Shown piece after piece: positions 21,454 to 62,618 of a DNA stretch of 64,000 bases; position 1 is the stretch's first letter, and each line of letters starts with the position of its first letter. Source of the DNA: Alphaproteobacteria bacterium (GTDB lineage Bacteria; Pseudomonadota; Alphaproteobacteria; Bin95); contig OZ224045.1 of NCBI GenBank assembly GCA_963665325.3, positions 640,001 through 704,000 of the forward strand. The letters are read 5' to 3'. The position numbers and the translations under genes were made by a program. The notes beneath the pieces were generated by a model that saw nothing but the letters and a program-made list of their open reading frames with translations, had not been told where the DNA came from and searched no databases.

Positions 21454-21540
21454 GGCCGCTTGCTGGAATTGGTAGACAGACCGGACTTAAAATCCGATGG
21501 GAGAATTCCCGTGAGGGTTCGAGTCCCTCAGCGGCCACCA
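21454..21540 (+). tRNA. tRNA-Leu (TAA)
   Basis: Acceptor GGCCGCT/AGCGGCC-A-CCA, D-loop GGAATTGGTAGAC, anticodon loop CTTAAAA, long variable arm, GGTTCGAGTCC. Confidence 0.95.
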
Positions 21541-46665: not shown

Positions 46666-49524
46666 ATGACAGGCGCGTCCCAGCCCCGCCGGATCGTCGT
46701 TCGCGGCGCCCGGGAGCACAACCTGAAATCCGTCGATGTGTCGCTGCCGCGCGGCAGGCTGATCGTCGTCACCGGGCTTTCCGGTTCCGGCAAGTCGTCG
46801 CTCGCCTTCGATACCATCTACGCCGAGGGCCAGCGCCGCTATGTGGAGAGCCTCTCCGCCTATGCGCGGCAGTTCCTGGAGCTGATGCGCAAGCCCGATG
46901 TCGATTCGATAGAGGGCCTGTCGCCGGCAATCTCCATCGAGCAGAAGACAACCTCGCGCAATCCGCGCTCCACCGTCGCCACCGTCACCGAGATCTACGA
47001 CTATATGCGCCTGCTCTGGGCCAGGGTCGGCATCCCCTATTCGCCGGCGACCGGCCTGCCGATCGAAAGCCAGAGCGTTTCCCAGATGGCGGACCGGATC
47101 GCGTCCCTTCCCGAAGGCTCACGCCTGCTGCTGATGGCGCCGGTCGTGCGCGGCCGCAAGGGGGAATACCGAAAGGAACTCCGGGACTACCAGCGGCGCG
47201 GTTTCCAGAGGGTCAAGATCGACGGCGAACTTTACGACATCGAGGAAGCGCCGGCACTCGGGAAGAACTTCAAGCACGACATTTCCATCGTCGTGGACCG
47301 GATCGCCGTCCGCCCCGATCTGGGCAACCGGCTGGCGGACAGCCTGGAGACGGCGCTCAACCTCGCCGACGGCCTGGCTTCCGTCGAGGACGTGCGGACG
47401 GGCGAGAGCATTCTCTTCTCGGCGCGCTTCGCGTGCCCCGTCTCGGGCTTCACCATCGAGGAGATCGAGCCCCGCCTCTTTTCCTTCAACAACCCGGCGG
47501 GCGCCTGCCCGGCCTGCGACGGCCTCGGCAGCCGGCGCTATGTGGACGAGTCGCTCGTGGTGCCGGACGAAGGGCTCAGCATGCGGCGCGGCGCCGTCGC
47601 ACCGTGGAAAAACACCACTGCGAAATACTACCAGCAGACCTTGAGGAGCCTGGCGCGCCACTACGATGTGGAGACCGACACGCCCTGGCGCGAACTGCCG
47701 CCGGAGGTGCGCCGCGCGGTGCTCTACGGCTCGGGGAACGAGCCGGTGACCATGGCCTACAATGACGGCCTGCGGAACTACAAGGTCACCAAGCCGTTCG
47801 AGGGCGTCATCCGCAACCTGGAACGGCGCCTCCGGGAAACCGACAGCGCCTGGGTGCGAGAGGAACTGTCGAAATACCTGGCCTCCCGGCCCTGCGAGAC
47901 ATGCGACGGCAAGCGGCTCCGGCCCGAAGCCCTCGCCGTCAGGATCGACAACCGCGACATTTCCGACATCGCCGCGCTTTCCATCGGCGAGGCCGGCCGC
48001 TGGTTCGCCCGGCTGGAAGACGCGCTGACGGCGAAGCAGCGCGAGATCGCCGACCGCATCCTGCGCGAAATCAACGACCGGCTGGGGTTCCTGAACGATG
48101 TCGGGCTCGAATACCTCTCCCTCGACCGGGCGTCCGGCACACTGTCCGGCGGGGAGAGCCAGCGCATCCGGCTTGCCTCGCAGATCGGCTCCGGCCTGAC
48201 TGGCGTACTCTATGTGCTCGACGAGCCCTCCATCGGCCTGCACCAGCGGGACAATGACCGGCTGCTGGCGACGCTCCGCCGCCTGCGCGACCTCGACAAT
48301 ACGGTCATCGTGGTCGAGCATGACGAGGAGGCGATCCGCAGCGCCGACTACCTGGTAGACATGGGCCCCGGCGCCGGCGTGCATGGCGGCCATGTCGTGG
48401 CCGAGGGCCTGCCCGAAGAAGTGGTCACACATGGAGACGGGCTGACGGCGCAGTATCTCACCGGGCGGCGGCGCATCGAGATTCCGCACTGGCGGCGGCC
48501 GGGCAACGGCCACAAGCTCACCGTCAGGGGCGCAAGCGGCCATAATCTCCAGGAAATCGATGCCGCCTTCCCGCTCGGCGTCTTCGCCTGCGTCACCGGC
48601 GTTTCCGGCGGCGGCAAGTCCACCCTGGTCGTCGAGACGCTCTACAAGGCGTTGGCCAGGCATCTTCATGGCGCGCGCGGCGCGGCCGCCCCGCATGACG
48701 GGATCGAGGGCGCCGATCTCGTGGACAAGGTCATCGACATCGACCAGTCGCCGATCGGGCGCACGCCGCGCTCGAACCCGGCCACCTATACCGGCGCGTT
48801 CACGCCGATACGGGACTGGTTCACCGGCCTGCCGGAAGCAAAAGCGCGCGGCTACAAGGCCGGACGATTCTCCTTCAACGTCAAGGGCGGGCGCTGCGAA
48901 ACCTGCCAGGGCGACGGCGTCATCAAGATCGAGATGCACTTCCTGCCGGACGTCTATGTCGAGTGCGAGACATGCAGAGGCCGGCGGTACAACCGTGAGA
49001 CGCTGGAGGTGCGCTTCCGTGGCCGGTCCATCGCCGATGTGCTGGACCTCACGGTCGAGGAAGGCGTCGAGATCTTCCGGGCGGTGCCGGCGGTTTACAA
49101 CAAGCTCGAGACGCTGCGCCGGGTCGGCCTCGGCTACATCAAGATCGGCCAGCAGGCGACCACGCTTTCCGGCGGCGAAGCGCAGCGCGTCAAGCTGGCC
49201 AAGGAGCTCTCCCGGCGCTCGACCGGACGCACACTCTACATTCTTGACGAACCGACCACCGGCCTGCATTTCGAGGATGTGCGCAAGCTGCTGGAAGTGC
49301 TGCACGCGCTCGTGGACGCCGGCAACACGGTGATCGTCATCGAACACAATCTGGAAGTCATCAAGACGGCGGACTGGATCGTCGATCTAGGCCCCGAGGG
49401 CGGCGCCGGCGGCGGGCGCATCGTCGCCGCCGGCACGCCGGAAGATGTGGCCGACGCGACAGAGAGCCACACCGCGCGCTACCTCGCCGCCTCCCTCGGC
49501 CGGGCGGAGCGGCTGGCGGGATAG
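46666..49524 (+). CDS. uvrA: Excinuclease ABC subunit A
   Basis: [23 protein letters not shown], two ABC signatures ([16 protein letters not shown]), zinc fingers. Confidence 0.99.
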
Positions 49525-50280: not shown

Positions 50281-51284
50281 CCCCCTTCCCCGTCGAGAAA
50301 CCCTGCGGGCGCCGCCGCGCCGGCCGGACCGAAGGCCAGCACCCGGAACAGCCTGCCCATCGCGTCCCCGCCTGTCAGCCGGGCCAGCGCGGCCTCCTGG
50401 CCGCCGAGCTGTGCGGCGCGGGCTTCGATGCCGAGGCGCTTCAGCCAATCGCCTTGCGGCACCGGCCCCCAGACTGCCGCGCCTGCCTCGCGTCCGGCGC
50501 GCGCCAGCGCCGCAAAATCCACATGCGCGCTCATATCCGCTTCGCCCGGCCGCGACAACGGATCGACCGGCGCGTGCGCGCTAACCGCCTGCACGGTCGG
50601 CTGGCGCGGCGGCTCGACATAGCCGTAATCGATGGCAATGCCGTAACCGGAGCGAGCGGCCAGCGTCGCGGCCATGCCGGTCGCGGCCGGGGAAACTTCC
50701 GCCATATCGCCGTCCTCGCCGCTTCCGGCACGGCGCAGCGCCGGACCCGCGACGAAGCGGAAGCCGCTGCCGTCGCAGTCCACCAGCCGCTCGTGCCAGC
50801 ATCCGTTCACTCTCAGGAACTGGCGGACCGGCAGGGCGTCGAAGAACTCGTTGGCAATCCAGATCGCCGGCCCTTCCGGAACGGTCTCGACCCTGTCGTG
50901 CCAGACGGCGTCGAAGCCGTGGGCCCGCTGCAGGGAACGAAGCGCCGGCGAGGGCTCGACCAGATGCACGTCGGGACGGAATGCCGGCTGCAGCCGCGCG
51001 GCGCGGAGCGCGTCGGCCATCAGCACGCCGCGACCCGGACCGAGCTCCACCAGCCGGACAACCGCCGGCCGCCCTAGCCGCTCCCAGGCATCCACGCACC
51101 AGAGCCCCACGATCTCGCCGAACATCTGGCTGATCTCGGGCGCCGTGATGAAGTCGCCGCCGCGCCCGAACGGATCGCGGCCGGCATAGTAGGCGGCGTT
51201 GTTCAGCGCCATATATTCAGCGAACGGCATGGGCCCGTCGCGCTCGATACGCCTGGCAAGGCGGATTGCCAGGCTGCCGCTCAC
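50277..51284 (-). CDS. SAM-dependent methyltransferase, MidA/NDUFAF7 family
   Basis: GDFITAPEISQMFGE, ELGPGRG, ANEFFDALP, IDYG, D-x-SAHVDF. Confidence 0.93.
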   Translation of the reverse strand: MSGSLAIRLARRIERDGPMPFAEYMALNNAAYYAGRDPFGRGGDFITAPEISQMFGEIVGLWCVDAWERLGRPAVVRLVELGPGRGVLMADALRAARLQPAFRPDVHLVEPSPALRSLQRAHGFDAVWHDRVETVPEGPAIWIANEFFDALPVRQFLRVNGCWHERLVDCDGSGFRFVAGPALRRAGSGEDGDMAEVSPAATGMAATLAARSGYGIAIDYGYVEPPRQPTVQAVSAHAPVDPLSRPGEADMSAHVDFAALARAGREAGAAVWGPVPQGDWLKRLGIEARAAQLGGQEAALARLTGGDAMGRLFRVLAFGPAGAAAPAGFLDGEGG

Positions 51285-52072
51285 TGACGGCGGACCAGCA
51301 GAAAGAGCCCGGCTGCGATCAACGGCAGGCAAAGCAGCTGCCCCATCGTGACCGGCCCCAGGATGAACCCCAGATGCGCATCCGGCTCGCGGAAGAACTC
51401 GGCAAAGGACCGCGCGAGCCCGTAACCGAGAAAGAAGGTGCCCGCCAGCAGGCCGGGCTTCGCGCGCACCCGTTCCCGCCACGCCAGCACCAGCATGACG
51501 AGGCCGAGAGCCAGGCCTTCCAGTGCCGCTTCGTAGAGCTGGCTCGGGTGTCGGGGCAACTGCGCCGGATCGGAGGGAAAGACCATCGCCCAGGAAACAT
51601 CGGACGCCCTGCCGTAGAGCTCGCCGTTCACGAAGTTTGCAAGCCGGCCGAGGAACAGTCCCAGGGGACAAACCGCAGCCACGATATCCCCGACACGCAG
51701 GAACGGCAGCTTGTGGCGCCGCGCGAAGAGGAAACTCACCAGCACGACGCCGGCCAGCCCGCCGTGGAACGACATGCCGCCCTGCCAGAGGAACAGCACC
51801 TCATCCGGGTTCAACAGGTAATAGCCGGGCTTGTAGAACAGGACATAGCCGAGCCGCCCCCCGGCCACCACGCCCAGCACCATCCAGGCGAGCAGATCGT
51901 CCACCCGGTCAGCGCGCATGAGATAGGGCGGCAGCACGGCGAGCCGGCGCGCAAGCCGCCATCCGACGATCAGGCCGACGAGATAGGCAAGCGCATACCA
52001 GCGTATCGCCAGCGGCCCGAGCTCGACCGCAACCGGGTCGATGACCGGGAACGGGACGACAGGAAGTATCAC
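51281..52072 (-). CDS. lgt: Prolipoprotein diacylglyceryl transferase
   Basis: IRWYALAY, GGRLGYVLFY, GGMSFHGG, GRLANFVNGELYGR, RHPSQLYE. Confidence 0.97.
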   Translation of the reverse strand: MILPVVPFPVIDPVAVELGPLAIRWYALAYLVGLIVGWRLARRLAVLPPYLMRADRVDDLLAWMVLGVVAGGRLGYVLFYKPGYYLLNPDEVLFLWQGGMSFHGGLAGVVLVSFLFARRHKLPFLRVGDIVAAVCPLGLFLGRLANFVNGELYGRASDVSWAMVFPSDPAQLPRHPSQLYEAALEGLALGLVMLVLAWRERVRAKPGLLAGTFFLGYGLARSFAEFFREPDAHLGFILGPVTMGQLLCLPLIAAGLFLLVRRQ

Positions 52073-52439: not shown

Positions 52440-53464
52440 GCGAGATCGTCGTCGAGTATCCCTATGACGAGCCGCCGCCGGAGGGCGCGGCGCGTCAGGT
52501 AGCCGACGGGATCTGGTGGGTGCGAATGCCGCTGCCCTTCGTTCTCGACCACATCAACCTCTACCTGCTGGAAGACGGGGACGGTTGGACCGTCGTCGAT
52601 TGCGGGCTGAACAAGGACGGTGTGCGGGACATCTGGGAGACGCTGATCCGCACGCTGCTCGCCGGACGGCCGATCCGCCGCGTTATCGTCACGCATTTCC
52701 ATCCCGACCATATGGGCTTGGCCCAGTGGCTGCTGACGCGCTTCCCCGAGGCCGAGCTCTGGATGAGCCTGTCGGAGTGGCTCTGGTCGCATTTCGCGTT
52801 CGACGCGCGCGAGCGCAACATGGAAGAAATGCTGCGCTTCTGGCGGCGCAACGGCATGGCGACTTCGACGGTCGACGCCATGCGCGGGCGGGGCAATTTC
52901 TACGCCCAGAACGTGGTCCGGCCTCCCATCGTCTATCGCCGTATCCAGCATGGCGACCGCATCCGCATCGGCGAGCGCGAGTGGCAGGCGATCATCGGTT
53001 CCGGCCATTCGCCGGAGCATGTCTGCCTCGCCTGCCCGGAGTCGAAGCTGCTGATTGCCGGCGACCAGGTGCTGCCGCGCATCACGACCAATGTGTCGGT
53101 GCATTTCGTCGAGCCCGACGGCGATCCGCTGCAGCATTTCCTGGACAGCACCCGCGCCTTCGCCCACCTGCCCGACGACACCTTCACGCTCTGCAGCCAC
53201 GACCGGCCGTTCTACGGCCTGCACGAGCGCCTCGCGCAGTTGCGCGACCACCACCAGGTTCGGCTCGACGATGGCTGCGAAGCCTTGTCGGAACCGCAAC
53301 ACGCCATCGACCTGCTGCCGGTCTTCTTCCACCGCCCGCTCGACCTGCACCAGCAGTCCTTCGCCATCGGCGAGGCGATCGCGCATCTGCACAATCTCTG
53401 GCACGCGGGCCGCGTCGGACGCGAGCGAAGCGCGGACGACGTCTTCCGCTTCGTTCGGGCATGA
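52436..53464 (+). CDS. MBL-fold metallo-hydrolase
   Basis: PLPFVLDHINLY, THFHPDHMG, GHSPEH, AGDQVLPRIT. Confidence 0.92.
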   Translation: MSEIVVEYPYDEPPPEGAARQVADGIWWVRMPLPFVLDHINLYLLEDGDGWTVVDCGLNKDGVRDIWETLIRTLLAGRPIRRVIVTHFHPDHMGLAQWLLTRFPEAELWMSLSEWLWSHFAFDARERNMEEMLRFWRRNGMATSTVDAMRGRGNFYAQNVVRPPIVYRRIQHGDRIRIGEREWQAIIGSGHSPEHVCLACPESKLLIAGDQVLPRITTNVSVHFVEPDGDPLQHFLDSTRAFAHLPDDTFTLCSHDRPFYGLHERLAQLRDHHQVRLDDGCEALSEPQHAIDLLPVFFHRPLDLHQQSFAIGEAIAHLHNLWHAGRVGRERSADDVFRFVRA

Positions 53465-55083
53465 CCGAGGAGCGGGAAACCCTCTCCGCGCTGCTGGAAC
53501 GCGTCGCGGAGGAAGCGGGAGGAGAGCCGGCGCTCGTCTATGGCGGCGAAACCTGGAGCTATGCCGACCTGCTCGACCGGTCGCGCCGGGCAGCGTCCGC
53601 ATTGGCCGGGCTCGGCATCGGGCGCGGCGACAAGGTCGCGCTCTGGCTGCCGAACGTGCCGGCCTGGCTCGCGCTCTATCTCGCGCTCGGACGCCTTGGC
53701 GCCGTGGCCGTCGCGGTCAACACGCGCTTCCGGGCGCTGGAGGTTGCGGACATCCTGTCGCGTTCCGGCGCGAAGGCGCTCGCCATGTGGCCGGGCTTCA
53801 AGGACATCGACTTCGCCGGCCTGCTCGCGGAGATCGGGGAGGAGCCGCTCGCCGGGCTTGAGCGGGTGCTGGTTTATGACGAGGGCGAGGCGCCGGTTCC
53901 CGAACGGGTAGCCGGCAGGCCGGCAACCGCGGCGAGAGCGCTGTTCGAGGCGCCGCCGCTGGCCGAGGACCGCGCCACGCCCGCCGACCCCTGCAACATC
54001 TTCACCACCTCCGGCACCACCTCGAAACCCAAGTTTGTGCTGCACGGACAGGAGCCGGTGACGCGCCATGCCCGCGACTGCGTTTCCGCCTTCGGCTGGG
54101 ATCGGCCGGGCGCGGTCAGCTACCAGGCGACGCCGGTCTGCGGAGTGTTCGGCTTCTCAACCATGATGGCGACGCTCGCGGCCGGCGCGCCGAATGTGCT
54201 TGCGCCGCTGTTCACGCCGGGCGAGGCCGCAGACGCGGTGCGCCGCCACAGGGTCACCCATTTCATGGGCACGGACGACATGTATGCCGGGATGCTGGCC
54301 TTGCGGGAGGAGCCCGAACCCTTCCCCAGCCTGCGCCTCTGCGGCTATGCGCTTTTCAACCCGACCCTTGAGGATTTCGAGACGAAGACGCTGGCGCGCG
54401 GCGTGCCGCTGATCGGGCTCTACGGCATGAGTGAGGTGGGGGCGCTGATGGCTGTCCAGAAGATCGATGCGCCGCTGGAGGACCGGCTGGCCGGCGGCGG
54501 CTATCCCGTGGCGCCCGAGGCCGTCGTGCGGGTGCGCAATGTCGAGACGGGAGAGCTTTGCCCGCCGGGGGTGTCGGGCGAGGTCGAGATGCGCTGCCCG
54601 AGCCTGTTCCTGCGCTACGAGGGCAACCCGGAAGCCACGGCTGCGGCGATGACCGAAGACGGCTTCCTGCGCACCGGGGACGCCGGCCGCATGCGCGCCG
54701 ACGGCAGCTTCGTCTATGAGGCGCGCATGGGCGACACGCTGCGCCTCGCGGGATTCCTGACGGCCCCGAGCGAAATCGAGGCGCATGTCGAAACGCATCC
54801 CTCGGTTGCCGGCTGCCAGGTCGTCGGCGTCGCGACGCCGCGCGGTCCGCGCGCCTTCGCCTTCGTGCGCCCGGCGGATGACTCCTACGACGAAACGGCG
54901 CTTCTAGGCTGGTGCCGCGAGACCATGGCCAATTACAAGGTCCCCGTCCGGGCCGCCCCCATCGACGCCTTCCCCGTCACCCACAGCGCCAACGGCACCA
55001 AGATCCAGAAAGCCGAACTTCGCCGCATGGCCGAGGCCTTGGAAGCAGATGCGGCGTCGGTGCGGAGTGCGGCGGCATTGTGA
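53461..55083 (+). CDS. AMP-binding acyl-CoA synthetase
   Basis: FTTSGTTSKPK, YGMSE, RTGD, YKVP, KIQK. Confidence 0.92.
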   Translation: MTEERETLSALLERVAEEAGGEPALVYGGETWSYADLLDRSRRAASALAGLGIGRGDKVALWLPNVPAWLALYLALGRLGAVAVAVNTRFRALEVADILSRSGAKALAMWPGFKDIDFAGLLAEIGEEPLAGLERVLVYDEGEAPVPERVAGRPATAARALFEAPPLAEDRATPADPCNIFTTSGTTSKPKFVLHGQEPVTRHARDCVSAFGWDRPGAVSYQATPVCGVFGFSTMMATLAAGAPNVLAPLFTPGEAADAVRRHRVTHFMGTDDMYAGMLALREEPEPFPSLRLCGYALFNPTLEDFETKTLARGVPLIGLYGMSEVGALMAVQKIDAPLEDRLAGGGYPVAPEAVVRVRNVETGELCPPGVSGEVEMRCPSLFLRYEGNPEATAAAMTEDGFLRTGDAGRMRADGSFVYEARMGDTLRLAGFLTAPSEIEAHVETHPSVAGCQVVGVATPRGPRAFAFVRPADDSYDETALLGWCRETMANYKVPVRAAPIDAFPVTHSANGTKIQKAELRRMAEALEADAASVRSAAAL

Positions 55084-55165
55084 GCAGAGGGCCGGGTAAC
55101 AGTTTCGATCCGGCCTGAACTCATTTGAAGTTCGCTAAGGGAACGCTCGCGGCCAATTCCACTCG

Positions 55166-55438
55166 TCATGCAGCTCTCGTGCTTTCGCGCAATCTTGCCT
55201 GCGCCAGGTCCCAGGACGCCTGCCTCCGCATCCAGAAACCCGCATTGCTCCAGCCGATCCGCTCCAGAGACAGCGCCATCGACGGCGAAATGCCCGAATG
55301 GCCATTGAGCAGGCGCGAAAGGGTGTGTCGCGCCACACCCAGCTGTCCGGCGGCATAGGTCACCGTCCATCCCATTTCCTCGATGCTATCGCGAATCGTC
55401 TCTCCCGGATGGGACGGGTTCAGCATTGCGTCGGTCAT
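55166..55438 (-). CDS. higA: HigA family antitoxin
   Basis: HPGE, AA-x2-LGVARHTLSRLLNG-x2-ISPSMAL, FWMR-x-Q. Confidence 0.92.
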   Translation of the reverse strand: MTDAMLNPSHPGETIRDSIEEMGWTVTYAAGQLGVARHTLSRLLNGHSGISPSMALSLERIGWSNAGFWMRRQASWDLAQARLRESTRAA

Positions 55439-55450
55439 TGGCTTCTCTCC

Positions 55451-55723
55451 CTAGTGGTAAACGACCAGGTCGATATCGACGGCCTCACCTTCAGCGAAGC
55501 GACAGGTGACACGCCAGTTGCCGGACACACGGATGCTCCACTGGCCCCGCCTGTCGCCCTTCAGCGCGTGGAGACGGTATCCGGGCAGGTCTATATCCTC
55601 CGGTTGGCGCGCGTCGGCGAGATCCGACAGGATACGTCGAAGCCTCGAGACGAGAGGCCCGGGCAACCGGCGGGCGTCGTCCCGCTCGAAGAAAGACTGC
55701 AACCCTTTGTGTCGAAACTTCAC
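55451..55723 (-). CDS. higB: HigB family (RelE-like) toxin
   Basis: FRHKGL, LPGYRLHALKGDR, WSIRVSGNWRVT; start uncertain. Confidence 0.88.
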   Translation of the reverse strand: MKFRHKGLQSFFERDDARRLPGPLVSRLRRILSDLADARQPEDIDLPGYRLHALKGDRRGQWSIRVSGNWRVTCRFAEGEAVDIDLVVYH

Positions 55724-55932
55724 GCCACCAGACACTTGAAAGTCGCTTCGGATCGTACCGTGTACGGACACACGTAGCAACTAATTCGTCATGGACTCCG
55801 CTTTTGGTGTTTATCCTCCGTTGCATTTGCTAAAGGCGTGCTGGCCTGAACTTGAGCGCCACTTAATCGGCAAAATTGGAGTCCGTTGCCGTTTCCGTGC
55901 AGACTGCCCGCATCGATAACGGAGACGGACGA

Positions 55933-57381
55933 GTGACAGGCTGGCGTGACGCCCTTCCTTCCGACGGCCTGCTTGCGGTGGTCAAGCGGGACTGCCCGAC
56001 CTGCGTCCTCGTGGCGCCGGTACTGGCGGAATTGGCGGCGTCGGGAGCCGTGGCGGTCACGCAGGACGATCCTGCATTTCCGGAGGGCGTGGCCCCCCGG
56101 CATGACGGCGATCTCGAACTCTCCTACCGGCTAGACATCGAGACGGTGCCGACGCTGATCCGGTTCAGCGACGGCAGGGAAGCCGAGCGCGCGATCGGCT
56201 GGAACAAGGCCGAGTGGCAGGCGCTGACGGGCCGTGCCGACCTTGGCGAGGACCTGCCGGAGAACCAGCCCGGATGCGGATCGCTTTCGGTCGAGTTCGG
56301 GATGCCGGAGAGGCTGGCGGTGCGGTTCGGCGACATCCCGCTTGCCGCGCGGCAGATCGTCGTGGAGGACCATGACGACCCGATGGAGGCGGCCTTCGAC
56401 CGGGGCTGGACCGACGGCCTGCCGATCGTGCCGCCGACCGACCTGCGCGTTGCCCGGATGCTGGCCGGCACGACGCGGGCGGCCGACGAGGTCATCGGGG
56501 AAATCCCGCCCAATCTCGCGCCCTGCACCGTAGAGAAGGCGGCCATCAACGCCGTCATGGCCGGCTGCCGGCCCGAATATTTCCCGACTGTCCTGGCGGC
56601 GGTCGAAGCCGCGCTGATACCCGGCTTCTCCATGCACGGCCTGCTCTGCACGACCCATTTCGCCGGGCCGGTGATCGTCGTGAACGGCCCCGTTGCGCGG
56701 CGCATCGGCATGAACTGGAGCCTGAACGCGCTCGGCCAGGGCAACCGCGCCAACGCGACCATCGGCCGGGCCTTCCAGCTCATCGTCCGCAATGTCGGCG
56801 GCGGCCGGCCGGGCGAGATCGACCGTGCGATGCAGGGCAATCCCGGCAAATACACCTTCTGCTTCGCCGAGGACGAGACCGACCCGGACTGGACGCCGCT
56901 TTCCGTTTCGCGCGGCATCCGGCCGAGCGCGTCCGCCGTCACCCTCTTCCACGGCGAGGGCGTGAGCGGCTTCGTGGACCAGAAGAGCCGGACGGCGGAG
57001 GAGCTGACCACCTCGCTCGCGCAATATCTCTGGCATGTGAACCACCCGAAGCTCTGCGAGTTCGGCGGGGCGCTGCTGGTGCTCTCGCCGGAGCATTACC
57101 TCATCTACAAGGCCGAAGGCTGGGGCCGCAGCGAAATCCACGCGGCCCTCTGGACCGCCCTGAAACGGCCGGGAAGCGAAGTCGTGCGCGGCGCGGGCGG
57201 TCTTGCCGAGGGGATGGAACCCGGACGGGAGAACGAGGTCATCGACAAGTTCCGCGAGCCCACCTTCCTGATCGCCCGCGCGGGCGGGCCGGCTGGCCTG
57301 TTCTCGGCGGTCATCGGCGGGTGGACCGGAATGCGGATGACCGGCGAAGTCGATCCTGTAACGAAGGAGATCGGTACATGA
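55933..57381 (+). CDS. Thioredoxin-like (CxxC) domain fused to an uncharacterised domain; partner of the UGSC protein
   Basis: VKRDCPTC, ETVPTLI, PGCGS, then DGLPIVPPT, AINAVMAGC, NRANATIGRA, GNPGKY; GTG start after GGAG. Confidence 0.82.
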   Translation: MTGWRDALPSDGLLAVVKRDCPTCVLVAPVLAELAASGAVAVTQDDPAFPEGVAPRHDGDLELSYRLDIETVPTLIRFSDGREAERAIGWNKAEWQALTGRADLGEDLPENQPGCGSLSVEFGMPERLAVRFGDIPLAARQIVVEDHDDPMEAAFDRGWTDGLPIVPPTDLRVARMLAGTTRAADEVIGEIPPNLAPCTVEKAAINAVMAGCRPEYFPTVLAAVEAALIPGFSMHGLLCTTHFAGPVIVVNGPVARRIGMNWSLNALGQGNRANATIGRAFQLIVRNVGGGRPGEIDRAMQGNPGKYTFCFAEDETDPDWTPLSVSRGIRPSASAVTLFHGEGVSGFVDQKSRTAEELTTSLAQYLWHVNHPKLCEFGGALLVLSPEHYLIYKAEGWGRSEIHAALWTALKRPGSEVVRGAGGLAEGMEPGRENEVIDKFREPTFLIARAGGPAGLFSAVIGGWTGMRMTGEVDPVTKEIGT

Positions 57382-57902
57382 CGGAACCCTATGCGATGAG
57401 AGACCCGACGGCGGAGACGGAGCCGGCGATGCGCCAGCCCGTCGTTCCGCCGACGAGTCTCGACGGGCTCACCATCGGCCTGCTTTCCATCGGCAAGGAG
57501 CGCTCGGTGGAATTTCTCGACTCCGTCGAGGATCAGCTGACAGCGCAGGGCCTGAACGTGCTGCGCTTCGCGAAGCCGACGCACACCAAGCCCGCGCCCC
57601 GCGGCGTCATCCAGGACCTCGTGGAGCGCTGCGACATCGTTGTCGAAGGGCTTGCGGACTGAGGCTCGTGCACGTCGTGCAGTTTGCATGACATGAGCGA
57701 GCTCGACCGCCTGGGAATGCCCGGCTGCGCGATAGCGACCGTCGAGTTTCGGGATGCCGCAGCCGCGCAGGCTGACGCCATGGGCGTGCGTCCGGCCGTG
57801 GTGTTCGTGGACCACCCGATCCAGAACCGGACGCCCGACGAGCTGGCGGACATCGCCGAGCGCGCCATTGCGCCCATTCTGGCCGCAATCCGGAGCGGGT
57901 AG
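57378..57902 (+). CDS. UGSC family selenoprotein (in-frame TGA 57660-57662 read as Sec)
   Basis: AAGGAG RBS; ORFs 57321-57662 and 57684-57902 share one frame and join as ...EGLAD-U-GSCTSCSLHDM... (174 aa); SECIS-like hairpin follows the TGA. Confidence 0.88.
57663..57702 (+). promoter_or_regulatory. Bacterial SECIS-like stem-loop
   Basis: Lower stem GCTCG/CGAGC, upper stem GTCGTGCA/TGCATGAC, small apical loop starting with G about 20 nt after the UGA. Confidence 0.7.
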
Positions 57903-58109
57903 CAGCGCGGCAACAGCCGGGGCTACCGGGCGATGAAGCTGCGATGCATCCGGAGTCCCTCCGAACGGCGCATTTCGGTGTAGAACGCAGCCCCCGACGC
58001 CTGGGTTTCGACGGTCATGCGTTCCGGCATGTTTCGGCTTGAGGCCTGGGCGCTCCCTACGCCGTCGATTCCCGTCGCCGCTGCCCGCGATTCAGGCTGA
58101 CATGCCTCT

Positions 58110-61100
58110 CTACCAACGAAGAGACAACGTAACGGCGGCCCCGTATCCGGTATCGCCCCGTTCGTATTCGGAGCGCGTAGCGGAGATCGAGAACCCGAGA
58201 TCGCCATGCCCCGAGGGAGCCTTCCGGCGGGTGCGCCAGCCGAGCGTGTAGTCCCGCCTGGACCCGGACAGGCCGATCCCGACATAGGGCACGCCGGTCA
58301 GTCGTCCGCCCAGCGCCGGCAGCCCGTACCCCGCCTCAGCCGTTATTCGACCGCTCGAGTCGGGTGCGTTGCGCCGGGAAAGCTCCGTGACACTGGTAGC
58401 GGCGAACAGCGAGTCGGTTCCCCGGTTCGCCGCGGCGCCTGCCGACGAGGTCAACGACAGCGCGAGTCCACGCTCCGAAGACGGCGCCGGATCGAAGCGC
58501 ACGGACCCTGACATGCCCCAGTCCCGGAACCCGCGCGCTTCGTGCGAAACAAGGCGACGGGCATTCAGTTCTGCCGAAATTCCGCGCGCCGTGTCGGTCC
58601 AGCCGATGCCGCCGCCGACCTCCAGGCCGAACCCAGTCTCTGCATCCCCTCCGTCGTGGCGAACCCCGATGGAGAGCTTCGGGACAAGAGACCGCCCTTC
58701 GCCGTCCGAGAAGGGCCGTTCGCCCTCCAGCGCCAGCCGCATCCGCGTAACCTCTCCCTCGCTCGCCGCCAGGTTTCCGTTCGCAACCGAGCGAACTGCC
58801 TTCGAAGACGTGCGAACCCAGAAGGCGTCGGACTTGAGCGAAAGCGCGAACCCGTCGGTATCGGGCGCTGCCACCAGGGTCTTGACCGCGCCGAGCGCCC
58901 CGAGCGTCAGGTTGATATCCGTGCGTATGGGCGCACCGGCTTCTTCCGTGAGCGTGAAGTAGCCGGCACCGGCGCCGGCGAGGCCCCACAGAGATGCCGT
59001 ATCGTCCACACGCAAGCGGGCATAAGGGTAGATGCCCATCATCAGGCTGCGGACCTTGCCGCGCGCTTGAGGAGACGCCCGGGGACCGGTGTAGGCGAAC
59101 GTGCCTCGGCCCTGGCTGTGCGCGATCGCCGCGCCCAGGGTCATCCGCCCCCAGTCGCTGTCCGCCGCGATGAGGCCCGTTGTCACGTCGCCGTCCATGC
59201 GGACATCTTCGACCTGAGCGTCGAAGCGATCTGCGGCGCCGCGTCCCCAGAGCGAGAACACCGGGCCGTCCCCGGGCTCGGAAGAAGAAAGGTGAAACGA
59301 GGTACCTGGCGGAAGACCGGAACTTCTATTGTGCCGCGCTCTCTGTTCGTCGCTTGGCAGCTGAAGGCGCTCGGCGGCCGAGATGTAAGTCGTTTCCAGC
59401 CTGACGTCTGCCGTTGCGTCCAACATGGACACGCCGCCGACCGTCGCGTGGCGCCGCGGTTCCTCTTCCAGGCGCGTGCCTACCGCTTCGACGATCTGCT
59501 GCGCGATCGTCCGCCCGAACCTGACGAGCCATGCCCCCGGGAGCGCATCGCGGTCGTTCGAGATAACTCCTGTCGCTGCCGCTCTCCCGATACGGGCGTT
59601 CTGCGCGTCCGACAACAGAAACGCGAAGGTCTCTTCACCCTCGTCCTTGGCGTCCCTCAGCAAGGGCACGGACACGGTCTTCTCGACCTCGCCAGCGGCG
59701 AAGACGAGCGTTCCCTCGGTCCGTTCATAGTCCTCGCCCGCCTTGGCCGACCGGTCCGCCGTCGTGTAGTTGACCGAAACGGTGCGGGTGGAGCTGCGGC
59801 TCAGCAGGACATTGAAGTCGACGGCCGGGTCGCTGCGTTCTTCCGCCCGCCCGTCCTCGACGGACAGTATGGGCAGTTTCAGCACCGTCGTCGTCGCTTC
59901 GCTCAGGGCGCCGGGGCCGACCCTGTTGACCGCCCGCACCTGGAAGGTGTGTTCCTGTCCGTCGGCGAGCCCGCCCACCGTCCTGGTCAAGTCCGCCCCG
60001 GCGGAGTCCCAAAGCGTCTCGTCAGGCACGGTGTCGCCTTCAGCATAGCGATATCGATATTCAACGATCGGTGCTCCGCCGTCGCTTTCCGGCGGTTCCC
60101 AGCTTATCGTTACCTCGCCATCTCCAGGCACCGCAGACAGATCCTTGGGCGCGCCCGGAACTGTTACCGGCGTCGTGGTCGTCGAAGCCGGTTCGCTCGC
60201 ACCGACGTCGTTCACCGCACGCACCTCGAAGGCGTATTCCGCACCGTTCGTCAGGCCGCCGACCGTGATCGTCAGAACCAAATCGACAGAAGTCCAGCCG
60301 GTCGTATCCGGAACCGAAGCGCCTTCGGCGTATCGGTATTCGTAGCGCGTGATCGCAGAGCCGCCGTCATCTGCTGGCGCTTCCCATGCCAGCACGACCT
60401 CGCCGTCGCCCGGCGTCGCCGCAAGGTTCCGCGGCAGGCCCGGCGCAGCAACTGGCGTCGTGGTCGCCGAAGCCGGTTCGCTCGCGCCGACGTCGTTCAC
60501 CGCACGCACCTCAAAGACGTATTTCGTGCCATTAGTCAGGCTCCCGACCGTGACTGTCAGCGCCGTCCCGGCGGAGGTCCAGCCCGTCACATCCGGAACC
60601 GACGAACCGGCCGCGTGGCGGTACTCATACTCCGTGACCGCAGAGCCGCCATCGCCCGCCGGCGCCGTCCAGGCGAGCACGACCTCGCCGTCGCCCGGCG
60701 TCACCACAAGAGTCTGCGGCGCATCCGGCACTGTTGCCGCCAGCATAGCCGTAGCCGCAACCGCAGCGCCCAGCCCCACATCGTTTACTGCGCGAACCTC
60801 GAAAACGTATTCCGCGCCATTGTCGAGACCGTCCACCGTGACTGTCAGCGCTGTCCCGGCGGAGGTCCAGCCCGTCACGTCCGGAACCGACGAACCGGCC
60901 GCATGGCGGTACTCATACTCCGTGACCGCTGAGCCGCCATTGCTTGCCGGCGCCGTCCATGCGAGTACGACCTCGCCGTCGCCCGGCGTCGCCACAAGGC
61001 TCTGCGGCGCATCCGGTACCGTTGCCGCCAGCATGGCCGTAGCCGCAACCGCAGCGCCCGACCCCACATCGTTTATTGCGCGAACCTCGAAAGCGTATTC

Positions 61101-62618
61101 CGCGCCATTGTCGAGACCGTCCACCGTGACTGTCAGCGCCGTCCCGGCAGACGTCCAGACGGTCGTATCCGGAACCGACGAACCGGCCGCATGGCGGTAC
61201 TCATACTCCGTGACCGCAGAGCCGCCATCGCCCGCCGGCGCCGCCCATCCGAGCACGACCTCGCCGTCGCCCGGCGTCGCCACAAGGCTCTGCGGCGCAT
61301 CCGGAACTGTTGCCGCCAGCATAGCCGTAGCCGCAACCGCAGCGCCCGACCCCGCATCGTTGACTGCGCGAACCTCGAAAGCGTATTCCGCGCCATTGTC
61401 GAGACCGTCCACCGTGACTGTCAGCGCCGTCCCGGCAGACGTCCAGACGGTCGTATCCGGAACCGACGAACCGGCCGCATGACGGTATTCATACTTCGTG
61501 ACCGCTGAGCTGCCGTTGCTTGCCGGCGCCGCCCATCCGAGCACGACCTCGCCGTCGCCCGGCGTCGCCACAAGGCTCTGCGGCGCATCCGGCACTGTTG
61601 CCGCCAGCATAGCCGTAGCCGCAACCGCAGCGCCCGACCCCGCATCGTTGACTGCGCGAACCTCGAAAGCGTATTCCGCGCCATTGTCGAGACCGTCCAC
61701 CGTGACTGTCAGCGCTGTCCCGGCAGACGTCCAGACGGCCGTATCCGGAACCGACGAACCGGCCGCATGGCGGTACTCATACTCAGTGACCGCTGAGCCG
61801 CCATTGCTTGCCGGCGCCGTCCATGCGAGCACGACCTCGCCATCGCCTGGCGTCACCACAAGAGTCTGCGGCGCATCCGGCACTGTTGCCGCCAGCATGG
61901 CCGTAGCCGCAACCACAGCGCCCGGCCCCGCATCGTTGACTGCGCGAACCTCGAAAGCGTATTCCGCGCCATTGTCGAGACCGTCCACCGTGACCGTCAG
62001 CGCTGTCCCGGCGGAGGTCCAGCCCGTCACGTCCGGAACCGACGAACCGGCCGCATGACGGTACTCATACTCCGTGACCGCTGAGCCGCCATCTTCCGCC
62101 GGCGCCGTCCATGCGAGCACGACCTCGCCATCGCCCGGCGTCGCCACAAGGCTCTGCGGCGCAAACGGTACCGTTGCCGCCGGCGACCCCATCCCGGTAA
62201 CCGCAGCGCCCGGCCCGACACCGTTCACTGCGCGAACCTCGAACGTGTAGGTCGTGCTGTTGGTCAGGCTGCCCACCGTGACCGCCCGTGCCTCACCAAC
62301 CGGTGTCCACACCGTCGCTTGCGGCACGGACGCGCCCGCGGCGTGTCGGTATTCGTAACCGGAGACAGGTTCGCCGCCATTGCTCACAGGCGCATCCCAT
62401 GTCAGCACCAGCTCGGCGTTGCCAGGCGTCACAGAAAGGTTGCGAGGCGCGTCCGGAACAGTCGCCGCGGCATCCGGCACAGCCGTCCCGACAGCCGCAG
62501 CGCCCGGTCCCACATCGTTAACCGCACGTACCTCGAACGCATAGGCCGTGCCGTTAGTCAGGCTGCCCACCGTGACCGTCAGCGCCGTTCCGGCGGAGGT
62601 CCAGCCCGTCACGTCCGG
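58110..62618 (-). pseudogene. Large surface adhesin (9 complete plus 1 partial FN3 domains, Calx-beta, C-terminal beta-barrel), 5' part interrupted by a transposon
   Basis: Repeated P-x-AP-x-L-x-A-TPGDG-x-V-x-L-x-W...Y-x-FEVRAVN; Calx-beta TVSVNYTTAD-x-SAKAGEDY; AWLVRFGRT linker; terminal TLSLRW; no signal peptide. Confidence 0.88.
60560..62170 (-). repeat. Near-identical 288-bp tandem repeats encoding FN3 domains
   Basis: The 96-aa unit recurs with 288-nt period; near-identical antisense ORFs start at 61133 and 61421. Confidence 0.93.

Follow-up and report, generated by a model that had tools for sequence, protein, structure and literature searches.

Does the TGA at positions 57660-57662 end a small gene, or is it an in-frame codon for selenocysteine (Sec, U) inside a larger one? 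The question concerns a 64,000-nucleotide stretch of alphaproteobacterial DNA (the window), which corresponds to positions 640001-704000 of contig C1 in a five-contig genome of 5.58 Mb, reported to be 100% complete. Under translation table 11 the locus appears as two open reading frames (ORFs), one of 113 amino acids (aa) running up to position 57662 and one of 72 aa at 57684-57902, starting from TTG 57684. The initial annotation had joined the two into a hidden selenoprotein, with a lone TGA interrupting a 174-codon frame at D-*-G-S-C-T-S-C. When the sequence was re-read, the frame was found to extend from ATG 57378-57380 to TAG 57900-57902 with that single in-frame TGA, as claimed. The translation reads ...VVEGLAD-U-GSCTSCSLHD... 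and has 174 residues including U, which is residue 95. We conclude, with a probability of roughly 0.93, that 57378-57902 is one gene and that it encodes a selenoprotein of the UGSC family. The features of this gene are as follows.

57378..57902, + strand: UGSC-family selenoprotein gene, predicted Sec at residue 95, PF24696 domain at residues 7-171
57660..57662, + strand: in-frame UGA, predicted to be read as selenocysteine (U95), motif D-U-G-S-C-T-S-C; TGA aligned in 38/38 related loci, Cys in the homologs P0122 and P0123
57664..57702, + strand: stem-loop of the selenocysteine insertion sequence (SECIS) type within the coding sequence, from fold, pairing conservation and codon use
57364..57369, + strand: Shine-Dalgarno-like AAGGAG, 8 nt 5' of the UGSC start, as read from the sequence

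The read-through product was compared with family profiles. Pfam PF24696 ('UGSC family') matched it with an E value of 1.6e-35 and 123.2 bits (cut-off 25), and the alignment placed residues 7-171 against profile positions 2-170 of 172, across both sides of the TGA. The NCBIfam model NF041046, 'UGSC family (seleno)protein', matched with an E value of 4.6e-35 and 120.8 bits when C stood for U. At E≤10 no Pfam family besides UGSC matched the 174-residue product, and no thioredoxin (Trx)-family profile was among the matches. The motif D-U-G-S-C occupies residues 94-98. Among 36 aligned sequences U95 (or C), G96, S97 and C98 were invariant, and C101 was nearly so (at least 90%).

Six paralogs of the UGSC family were found in the genome, and in every one of them a single in-frame TGA stands at (D/C)-U-G-S-C. 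The five paralogs outside the window, which carry one TGA and one hairpin each, are located in the source genome as follows.

C3:670881-671309: UGSC paralog L021
C1:260033-260458: UGSC paralog L022
C1:963596-964033: UGSC paralog L023
C3:1241125-1241547: UGSC paralog L025
C1:734931-735383: UGSC paralog L026

When the source genome and 40 relatives were searched, the family was present in 29 of the 41 genomes. Summed over the per-genome counts there were 139 matches, and 138 of these had exactly one TGA; the sole exception was a 49-aa fragment at a contig end, which stops short of the motif. Among the loci fetched, U-G-S-C was seen in 37/38 and U-G-A-C in 1/38 (a spurious U-G-T-C match, from an unrelated frame in L048, is not counted). 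Within the same taxonomic family all 24 genomes possessed UGSC, as did four of 16 other families of the class, and the copy number was 2-7 in each of the 16 congeners. The family was absent (E≤1e-10) from all 150 other genomes of an even phylum-wide sample. It is patchy, not universal, and this lineage has expanded it to six copies per genome.

A large protein collection contained 28 near-length relatives. The two full-length ones, P0122 and P0123, measure 177 and 173 aa and carry Cys at the position of the TGA, the counterpart for which the initial annotation had proposed to look. The remaining 26 are pieces of 95-97 aa, and the three of these that were aligned stop with the very residue that precedes U. 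The expectation that standard gene callers would split the gene was therefore borne out. The selection acting on the two sides of the TGA was estimated from 10 close orthologs. The uncorrected ratio of nonsynonymous to synonymous differences (pN/pS) was 0.03-0.19 over the 78 codons 3' of the TGA, and 0.13-0.27 over the 88 codons before it; three more distant orthologs were saturated at synonymous sites and hence uninformative. Sequence comparison thus indicates purifying selection on the codons 3' of the TGA.

The Sec trait of the organism, which had been predicted from this gene, was found on searching the genome. selA (C1:746594-747892, 535 bits) lies beside selB (C1:744702-746570, 442 bits), the pair starting about 40.7 kb beyond the end of the window, and selD was located at C1:979117-980004 (271 bits). 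A tRNA-Sec was detected at C5:194548-194638 with 72.6 bits, and ARAGORN also called it tRNA-SeC, with anticodon tca. All four scored over their curated cut-offs. As had been stated, the window itself holds no sel gene; nor does it hold a tRNA-Sec, its three tRNAs being Leu, Gln and Lys. A match to the tRNA-Sec model at 21454-21540 (+), with 46.5 bits against a cut-off of 47, is the tRNA-Leu (taa), which has a long variable arm. The selD gene encodes a 720-aa fusion of Pyr_redox_2 and SelD (AIRS/AIRS_C) domains (locus L010:334-2496, about C1:977950-980112). It has no in-frame stop and so is a non-Sec form; it is of the Ndh-SelD fusion type mentioned in a passage of PMC2398784. TGA was the commonest stop, ending 1137 of 1776 long ORFs with high G+C at third codon positions (GC3) (64%), and it also ends the gene immediately upstream, at 57379-57381. 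Because TGA otherwise serves as the commonest stop, the codon has not been reassigned.

In bacterial SelB-dependent recoding the SECIS is a stem-loop directly 3' of the UGA, with a G in its apical loop and a spacing of about 20 nt. The hairpin described in the initial annotation, with a GCUCG/CGAGC stem, a GUU loop and a G some 20 nt downstream, is present as written. The lower stem is formed by GCUCG 57664-57668 and CGAGC 57698-57702, and the upper stem by GUCGUGCA (57674-57681) and UGCAUGAC (57685-57692), which enclose the apical loop GUU 57682-57684. The loop G stands 20 nt after the A of the UGA. The minimum free energy of the 61 nt from the UGA onward was -25.3 kcal/mol, as against a mean of -19.6 (standard deviation 2.7) for shuffled sequences (z -2.1). 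Like the E. coli fdhF-type SECIS, this is a stem-loop 3' of a UGA within an ORF, with an apical G followed by U at about 20 nt; it differs in sequence, and its minimum-energy fold lacks a bulged U in the upper stem.

Pairing was then compared across 37 loci, which gave 33 distinct sequences. The 8-bp upper stem was paired in 92% of cells, whereas sliding the 3' partners by 1-3 columns left 8-48% paired. Both-sided changes occurred at three of the eight pairs: G-C to A-U in five sequences, C-G to G-C in two and G-U to C-G in one. The lower stem varies among paralog groups and is re-formed in each. In L026, the most divergent paralog, the residues and the nucleotide sequence are different, and a hairpin is still found at nearly the same place. 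Codon choice was also unusual. In the usage of this genome AGT accounts for 2.5% of Ser, TTG for 6% of Leu and TGT for 9% of Cys codons. The rare AGT and TTG were found in the apical region of all 19 rows of the SCSLHD type, and the rare TGT in that of all 13 other rows except divergent L026. Because one Pfam domain crosses the TGA, and because TGA and hairpin are both conserved in relatives, their combination is beyond chance. The single domain, the sel machinery and the retention of TGA and hairpin together uphold the selenoprotein assignment of the initial annotation.

The gene is an ordinary member of a family that has been in the literature since 2007-2008 (Zhang and Gladyshev), and the family itself is not new. 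The word 'hidden' therefore holds for naive ORF calling and not for current knowledge, since Pfam and NCBIfam models exist. UGSC-containing protein is given as a selenoprotein of unknown function, also in Hyphomonas neptunium, in a passage of PMC1976440. In the text of PMC2398784, UGSC is counted with the most abundant selenoprotein families of the Global Ocean Sampling set, with 255 Sec and 21 Cys forms and a UxxC motif, and a fusion of UGSC with a domain called Unknown_1 is described. The present gene agrees with these accounts in its domain, the position of U-G-S-C, its length of about 170 aa, the predominance of Sec forms and the association or fusion with Unknown_1. Nothing essential differs; the six copies of this single genome may be set against the 33 UGSC proteins in 26 organisms tabulated in a 2016 survey (table in PMC5029168). 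The family is listed among selenoproteins 'largely uncharacterized' in function in an entry of a 2022 review, and its function is still listed as uncharacterised, with NF041046, in an entry of a 2026 review (PMC13188914).

The gene upstream of the UGSC gene was examined next, together with its domains, as follows.

55933..57381, + strand: partner gene with a Trx-like CxxC domain and 'Unknown_1', likely start GTG 55933 after GGAG
55933..56289, + strand: Trx-like N-terminal domain of about 120 aa, C-P-T-C codons 55993-56004, then P-G-C-G-S
56290..57378, + strand: 'Unknown_1' domain of about 360 aa, conserved partner of UGSC

The longest ORF of the partner runs from TTG 55876 to 57381, and its nearest homolog (482 aa, 95% identical) starts at the position of GTG 55933. 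The stop of the partner, TGA 57379-57381, overlaps the UGSC start as ATGA, and through this overlap the UGSC gene is translationally coupled to it. A scan of 55600-58200 for sigma-70 promoters and intrinsic terminators found none. The partner has at least 8000 homologs at E 0.001. The best 120 of them are 459-487 aa long and 61-95% identical, and for some homologs the source gives the name 'thioredoxin family protein'.

In 12 aligned homologs C40, C43 and C134 were invariant, as was the C-P-T-C motif; P-G-C-G-S, 3' of it, was also invariant. The N-terminal domain matched the thioredoxin model TIGR01068 weakly (E 2.9e-5, 24.2 bits, cut-off 96.8), its similarity to thioredoxins of the PDB was weak as well (best E 0.004), and Pfam gave no match. 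Judged by these comparisons, it is Trx-like and not a thioredoxin equivalog. The C-terminal domain probably corresponds to the 'Unknown_1' of the 2008 paper, as its fusion to UGSC suggests. No Pfam or NCBIfam model matched it even at E 10, and the family is very large (5365 cluster representatives at E≤1e-3). Two Cys, ORF residues 231 and 329, are nearly invariant. An AlphaFold2 model of the domain had a predicted local distance difference test score (pLDDT) of 92.8 and a predicted template modelling score (pTM) of 0.91. Foldseek found no solved relative for this model (best E 4.5e-3 at a template modelling (TM) score of 0.28), and with VIA-align none of 48161 chains reached Z≥5, the best being chorismate mutase 1fnk_A with Z 4.3.

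The two genes keep company throughout. tblastn revealed seven Unknown_1 copies in the genome; four of the six UGSC paralogs adjoin one, and the other two (C1:260033 and C1:734931) are fused with one in frame, the Unknown_1 domain lying downstream. The extra Unknown_1 copy, at C1:731967-732722, has no UGSC of its own. In the wider set Unknown_1 was adjacent or fused in 33 of 37 UGSC loci. For the four others only 1.5-kb flanks were covered, and in the case of L023 a copy lies just outside the flank. At locus L061 (7625-7891, -; about C1:964600-964900 of the source genome) an ORF for a FitA-like ribbon-helix-helix antitoxin (E 2.3e-15) stands between Unknown_1 and UGSC, where a toxin-antitoxin module may have been inserted.

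Domains fused to Unknown_1 were sought in its 62 representatives of at least 400 aa, out of 150 listed. UGSC was found in 26 of the 62, AhpC-TSA/Redoxin in six, and FeThRed_B, the catalytic chain of ferredoxin:thioredoxin reductase, in one. The fused UGSC domains themselves bear the mark of the UGA. Six of the 26 are whole and N-terminal, three of these showing C-G-S-C; 16 consist of the C-terminal half only, at the N-terminus, as in an ORF called after the UGA; and four consist of the N-terminal half only, at the C-terminus and ending ...GD, as in an ORF cut at the UGA. In the other 29 representatives Pfam recognised nothing; of these, 14 contain a CxxC within their first 200 residues. All recognisable domains fused to Unknown_1 are of the thiol or selenol redox type. 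The ESM Atlas returned only unnamed clusters or clusters auto-named as thiol-oxidoreductases, one of them with UGSC in 16% of its members.

The neighbourhoods of the six paralogs (51 GC3-filtered ORFs scanned) contained no common third gene that would name a substrate. The neighbours included hydantoinase B, amidohydrolase, an enolase-superfamily member, dihydrodipicolinate synthase (DHDPS), a luciferase-like protein, zinc alcohol dehydrogenase and enoyl-CoA hydratase. Because no third gene is shared, no substrate can be inferred.

An AlphaFold2 model of UGSC built on a 36-row alignment had a pLDDT of 90.5 and a pTM of 0.84. It shows strands at 32-37, 60-65, 87-93, 116-121 and 140-144 with a helix after each, i.e., a five-fold beta-alpha arrangement. 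The model puts U95 after strand 3, just ahead of the helix 96-111, whose first turns would bear C98 and C101. The structural neighbours given by Foldseek were generic flavodoxin, CheY and periplasmic-binding-type domains, with TM scores of about 0.4-0.5. VIA-align placed 8s7v_H at the top (Z 12.2, root-mean-square deviation 2.8 over 130 residues) and the next chain at 11.1; because the top row stands only about 1 Z above the next, no specific structural relative can be named. No thioredoxin was among the fold matches listed, which by the rule of the tool is not an exclusion. A sequence search of the PDB with UGSC gave only CobE, at a non-significant E of 0.12. The fold appears flavodoxin-like, and the predicted topology argues against a thioredoxin fold. 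If the model is right, the 'likely Trx-like fold' put forward in the text of the 2008 paper (PMC2398784) would need a slight correction.

With Trx-fold UxxC/CxxU selenoproteins (Trx-like, Prx-like, SelW-like and AhpD-like) UGSC would share a Sec/Cys pair spaced by two at a helix N-terminus, SECIS-dependent bacterial recoding and the existence of Cys homologs. It would differ from them in its modelled five-fold parallel beta-alpha sandwich, with flavodoxin, CheY and periplasmic-binding-type neighbours.

How might such a protein be made and work? SelB carrying GTP and Sec-tRNA(Sec) would bind the hairpin on the translating mRNA, and Sec would be inserted at residue 95. U95 and C98 would form a U-x-x-C pair at a helix N-terminus, placed like a redox-active CxxC and able to act as a selenenylsulfide/selenol-thiol couple. 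The Trx-like CxxC domain of the partner would pass electrons to the U95-C98 selenenylsulfide or take them from it, and Unknown_1, with its two conserved Cys, would be the part that handles the substrate. We give about even odds to this division of labour, with UGSC as a selenol/thiol redox subunit, Unknown_1 as the substrate part and the Trx-like domain as the electron relay. A bolder proposal is that redox domain, Unknown_1 and UGSC form an unrecognised selenium-dependent two-component oxidoreductase, with Unknown_1 as a catalytic component of new enzyme fold and the six copies, in their different catabolic neighbourhoods, as substrate-specific reductases, each served by a selenoprotein subunit dedicated to it; it is a tentative one, and somewhat less probable.

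By analogy only, the arrangement recalls the glycine and D-proline reductases (GrdA, GrdB, PrdB), in which a Sec/Cys selenoprotein is combined with a larger substrate protein and a thioredoxin-type donor. There is no detectable sequence similarity to these (Pfam at E≤10 gives only UGSC), the present host, an organism of high GC content, is of another kind, and the partner domain belongs to no known family.

Could the TGA nevertheless be a true stop, either between two small genes or as a nonsense mutation that inactivated one? Table 11 does yield two ORFs, TGA is the commonest stop of the genome, and in public protein sets the N-terminal piece of 95 aa is entered as a protein. Against this, a single Pfam domain crosses the TGA, full-length Cys forms exist, and 138 of the 139 matches across 29 genomes share the same lone TGA, a retention that a pseudogene would not show. 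The 78 downstream codons are under in-frame purifying selection, and the sole table-11 start after the TGA, TTG 57684, falls inside the conserved hairpin. We hold a true stop to be highly improbable. No more credible is a read-through that dispenses with Sec-tRNA, whether by near-cognate insertion of Trp or Cys or under a reassigned code. The sequence alone cannot tell read-through from Sec insertion; however, TGA terminates 64% of the long ORFs, among them the partner gene, which ends 280 nt upstream, the genome has the complete Sec machinery, and the SECIS-type hairpin is conserved at the expected spacing. Moreover, where a homolog lacks the TGA, its residue is Cys, the usual counterpart of Sec, and not Trp or Arg. 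Some points do weigh against our own reading of the gene and its chemistry. The stability of the hairpin is only mildly unusual, 6 of 200 shuffles folding as well. A column-shuffle control was already 85% paired, and the hairpin lies in a conserved coding sequence of related sequences, so that its conservation and the pair statistics are partly protein-driven; there is a true structural signal, though a partly confounded one. When 57560-57800 was scanned with Rfam at E≤10, no SECIS model matched, and the only hit was a chance one to a long non-coding RNA. The NF041046 score of 120.8 bits is about 4 below the curated cut-off of 125. Finally, selenium incorporation is a prediction, and the proposed redox relay is drawn from motifs, fusions and predicted structure.

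The last alternative accepts the Sec protein and questions its chemistry: U95, C98 and C101 might ligate a metal or iron-sulfur centre, possibly at an interface with the Cys of Unknown_1. The near-invariance of C101 gives a CxxCxxC-like spacing, and Unknown_1 has just two nearly invariant Cys. Class I fumarate hydratase and L-serine dehydratase, both Fe-S enzymes, are among the weak structural neighbours of Unknown_1, but a Z of at most 4.1 is no sign of kinship. The catalytic chain of ferredoxin:thioredoxin reductase, to which one Unknown_1 representative is fused, is an Fe-S disulfide reductase. In the two fused paralogs, however, the third Cys is displaced or absent (UGSCTSWC, CUGSCTPAV), and the other fused domains are of thiol-disulfide types (Trx-like CxxC, and AhpC-TSA/Redoxin in 6/62). 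The family is also classed with UxxC redox motifs in the text of PMC2398784. A metal centre is therefore considered unlikely, and the selenol/thiol couple is preferred.

The surroundings of the operon were also annotated. Directly upstream of it, on the opposite strand, lies an ORF for a HigB-like, RelE-type toxin (55451-55780, -; PF05015, E 9.2e-17), and beside this a 145-aa ORF (54933-55370, -) without a Pfam match. On the other side a 1500-aa ORF (58110-62612, -) converges on the UGSC gene. Its product carries a Calx-beta domain and nine repeats of the fibronectin type III kind, each about 95 aa long (PF00041, E 7.9e-97). The C-terminal 480 aa or so match nothing in Pfam. By its appearance it is a large repeat protein, either secreted or at the cell surface. 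Three further genes are ordinary neighbours with no evident tie to the selenoprotein operon.

46666-49524, + strand: UvrA
51281-52072, - strand: prolipoprotein diacylglyceryl transferase (Lgt)
52516-55083, + strand: 855-aa AMP-binding enzyme

Gene callers that take TGA as a stop split or truncate this UGSC gene and its five paralogs, and a profile-driven rescue of selenoproteins could miss the paralog at 57378-57902, which scores just below the NCBIfam cut-off. What is new here is the context, above all the unnamed Unknown_1 partner without a solved relative; the six-copy expansion and the prediction of a non-thioredoxin fold are also of interest. A search for the function of UGSC can start from its coupling with Unknown_1, from the variety of redox domains fused to that partner and from a model that is flavodoxin-like.

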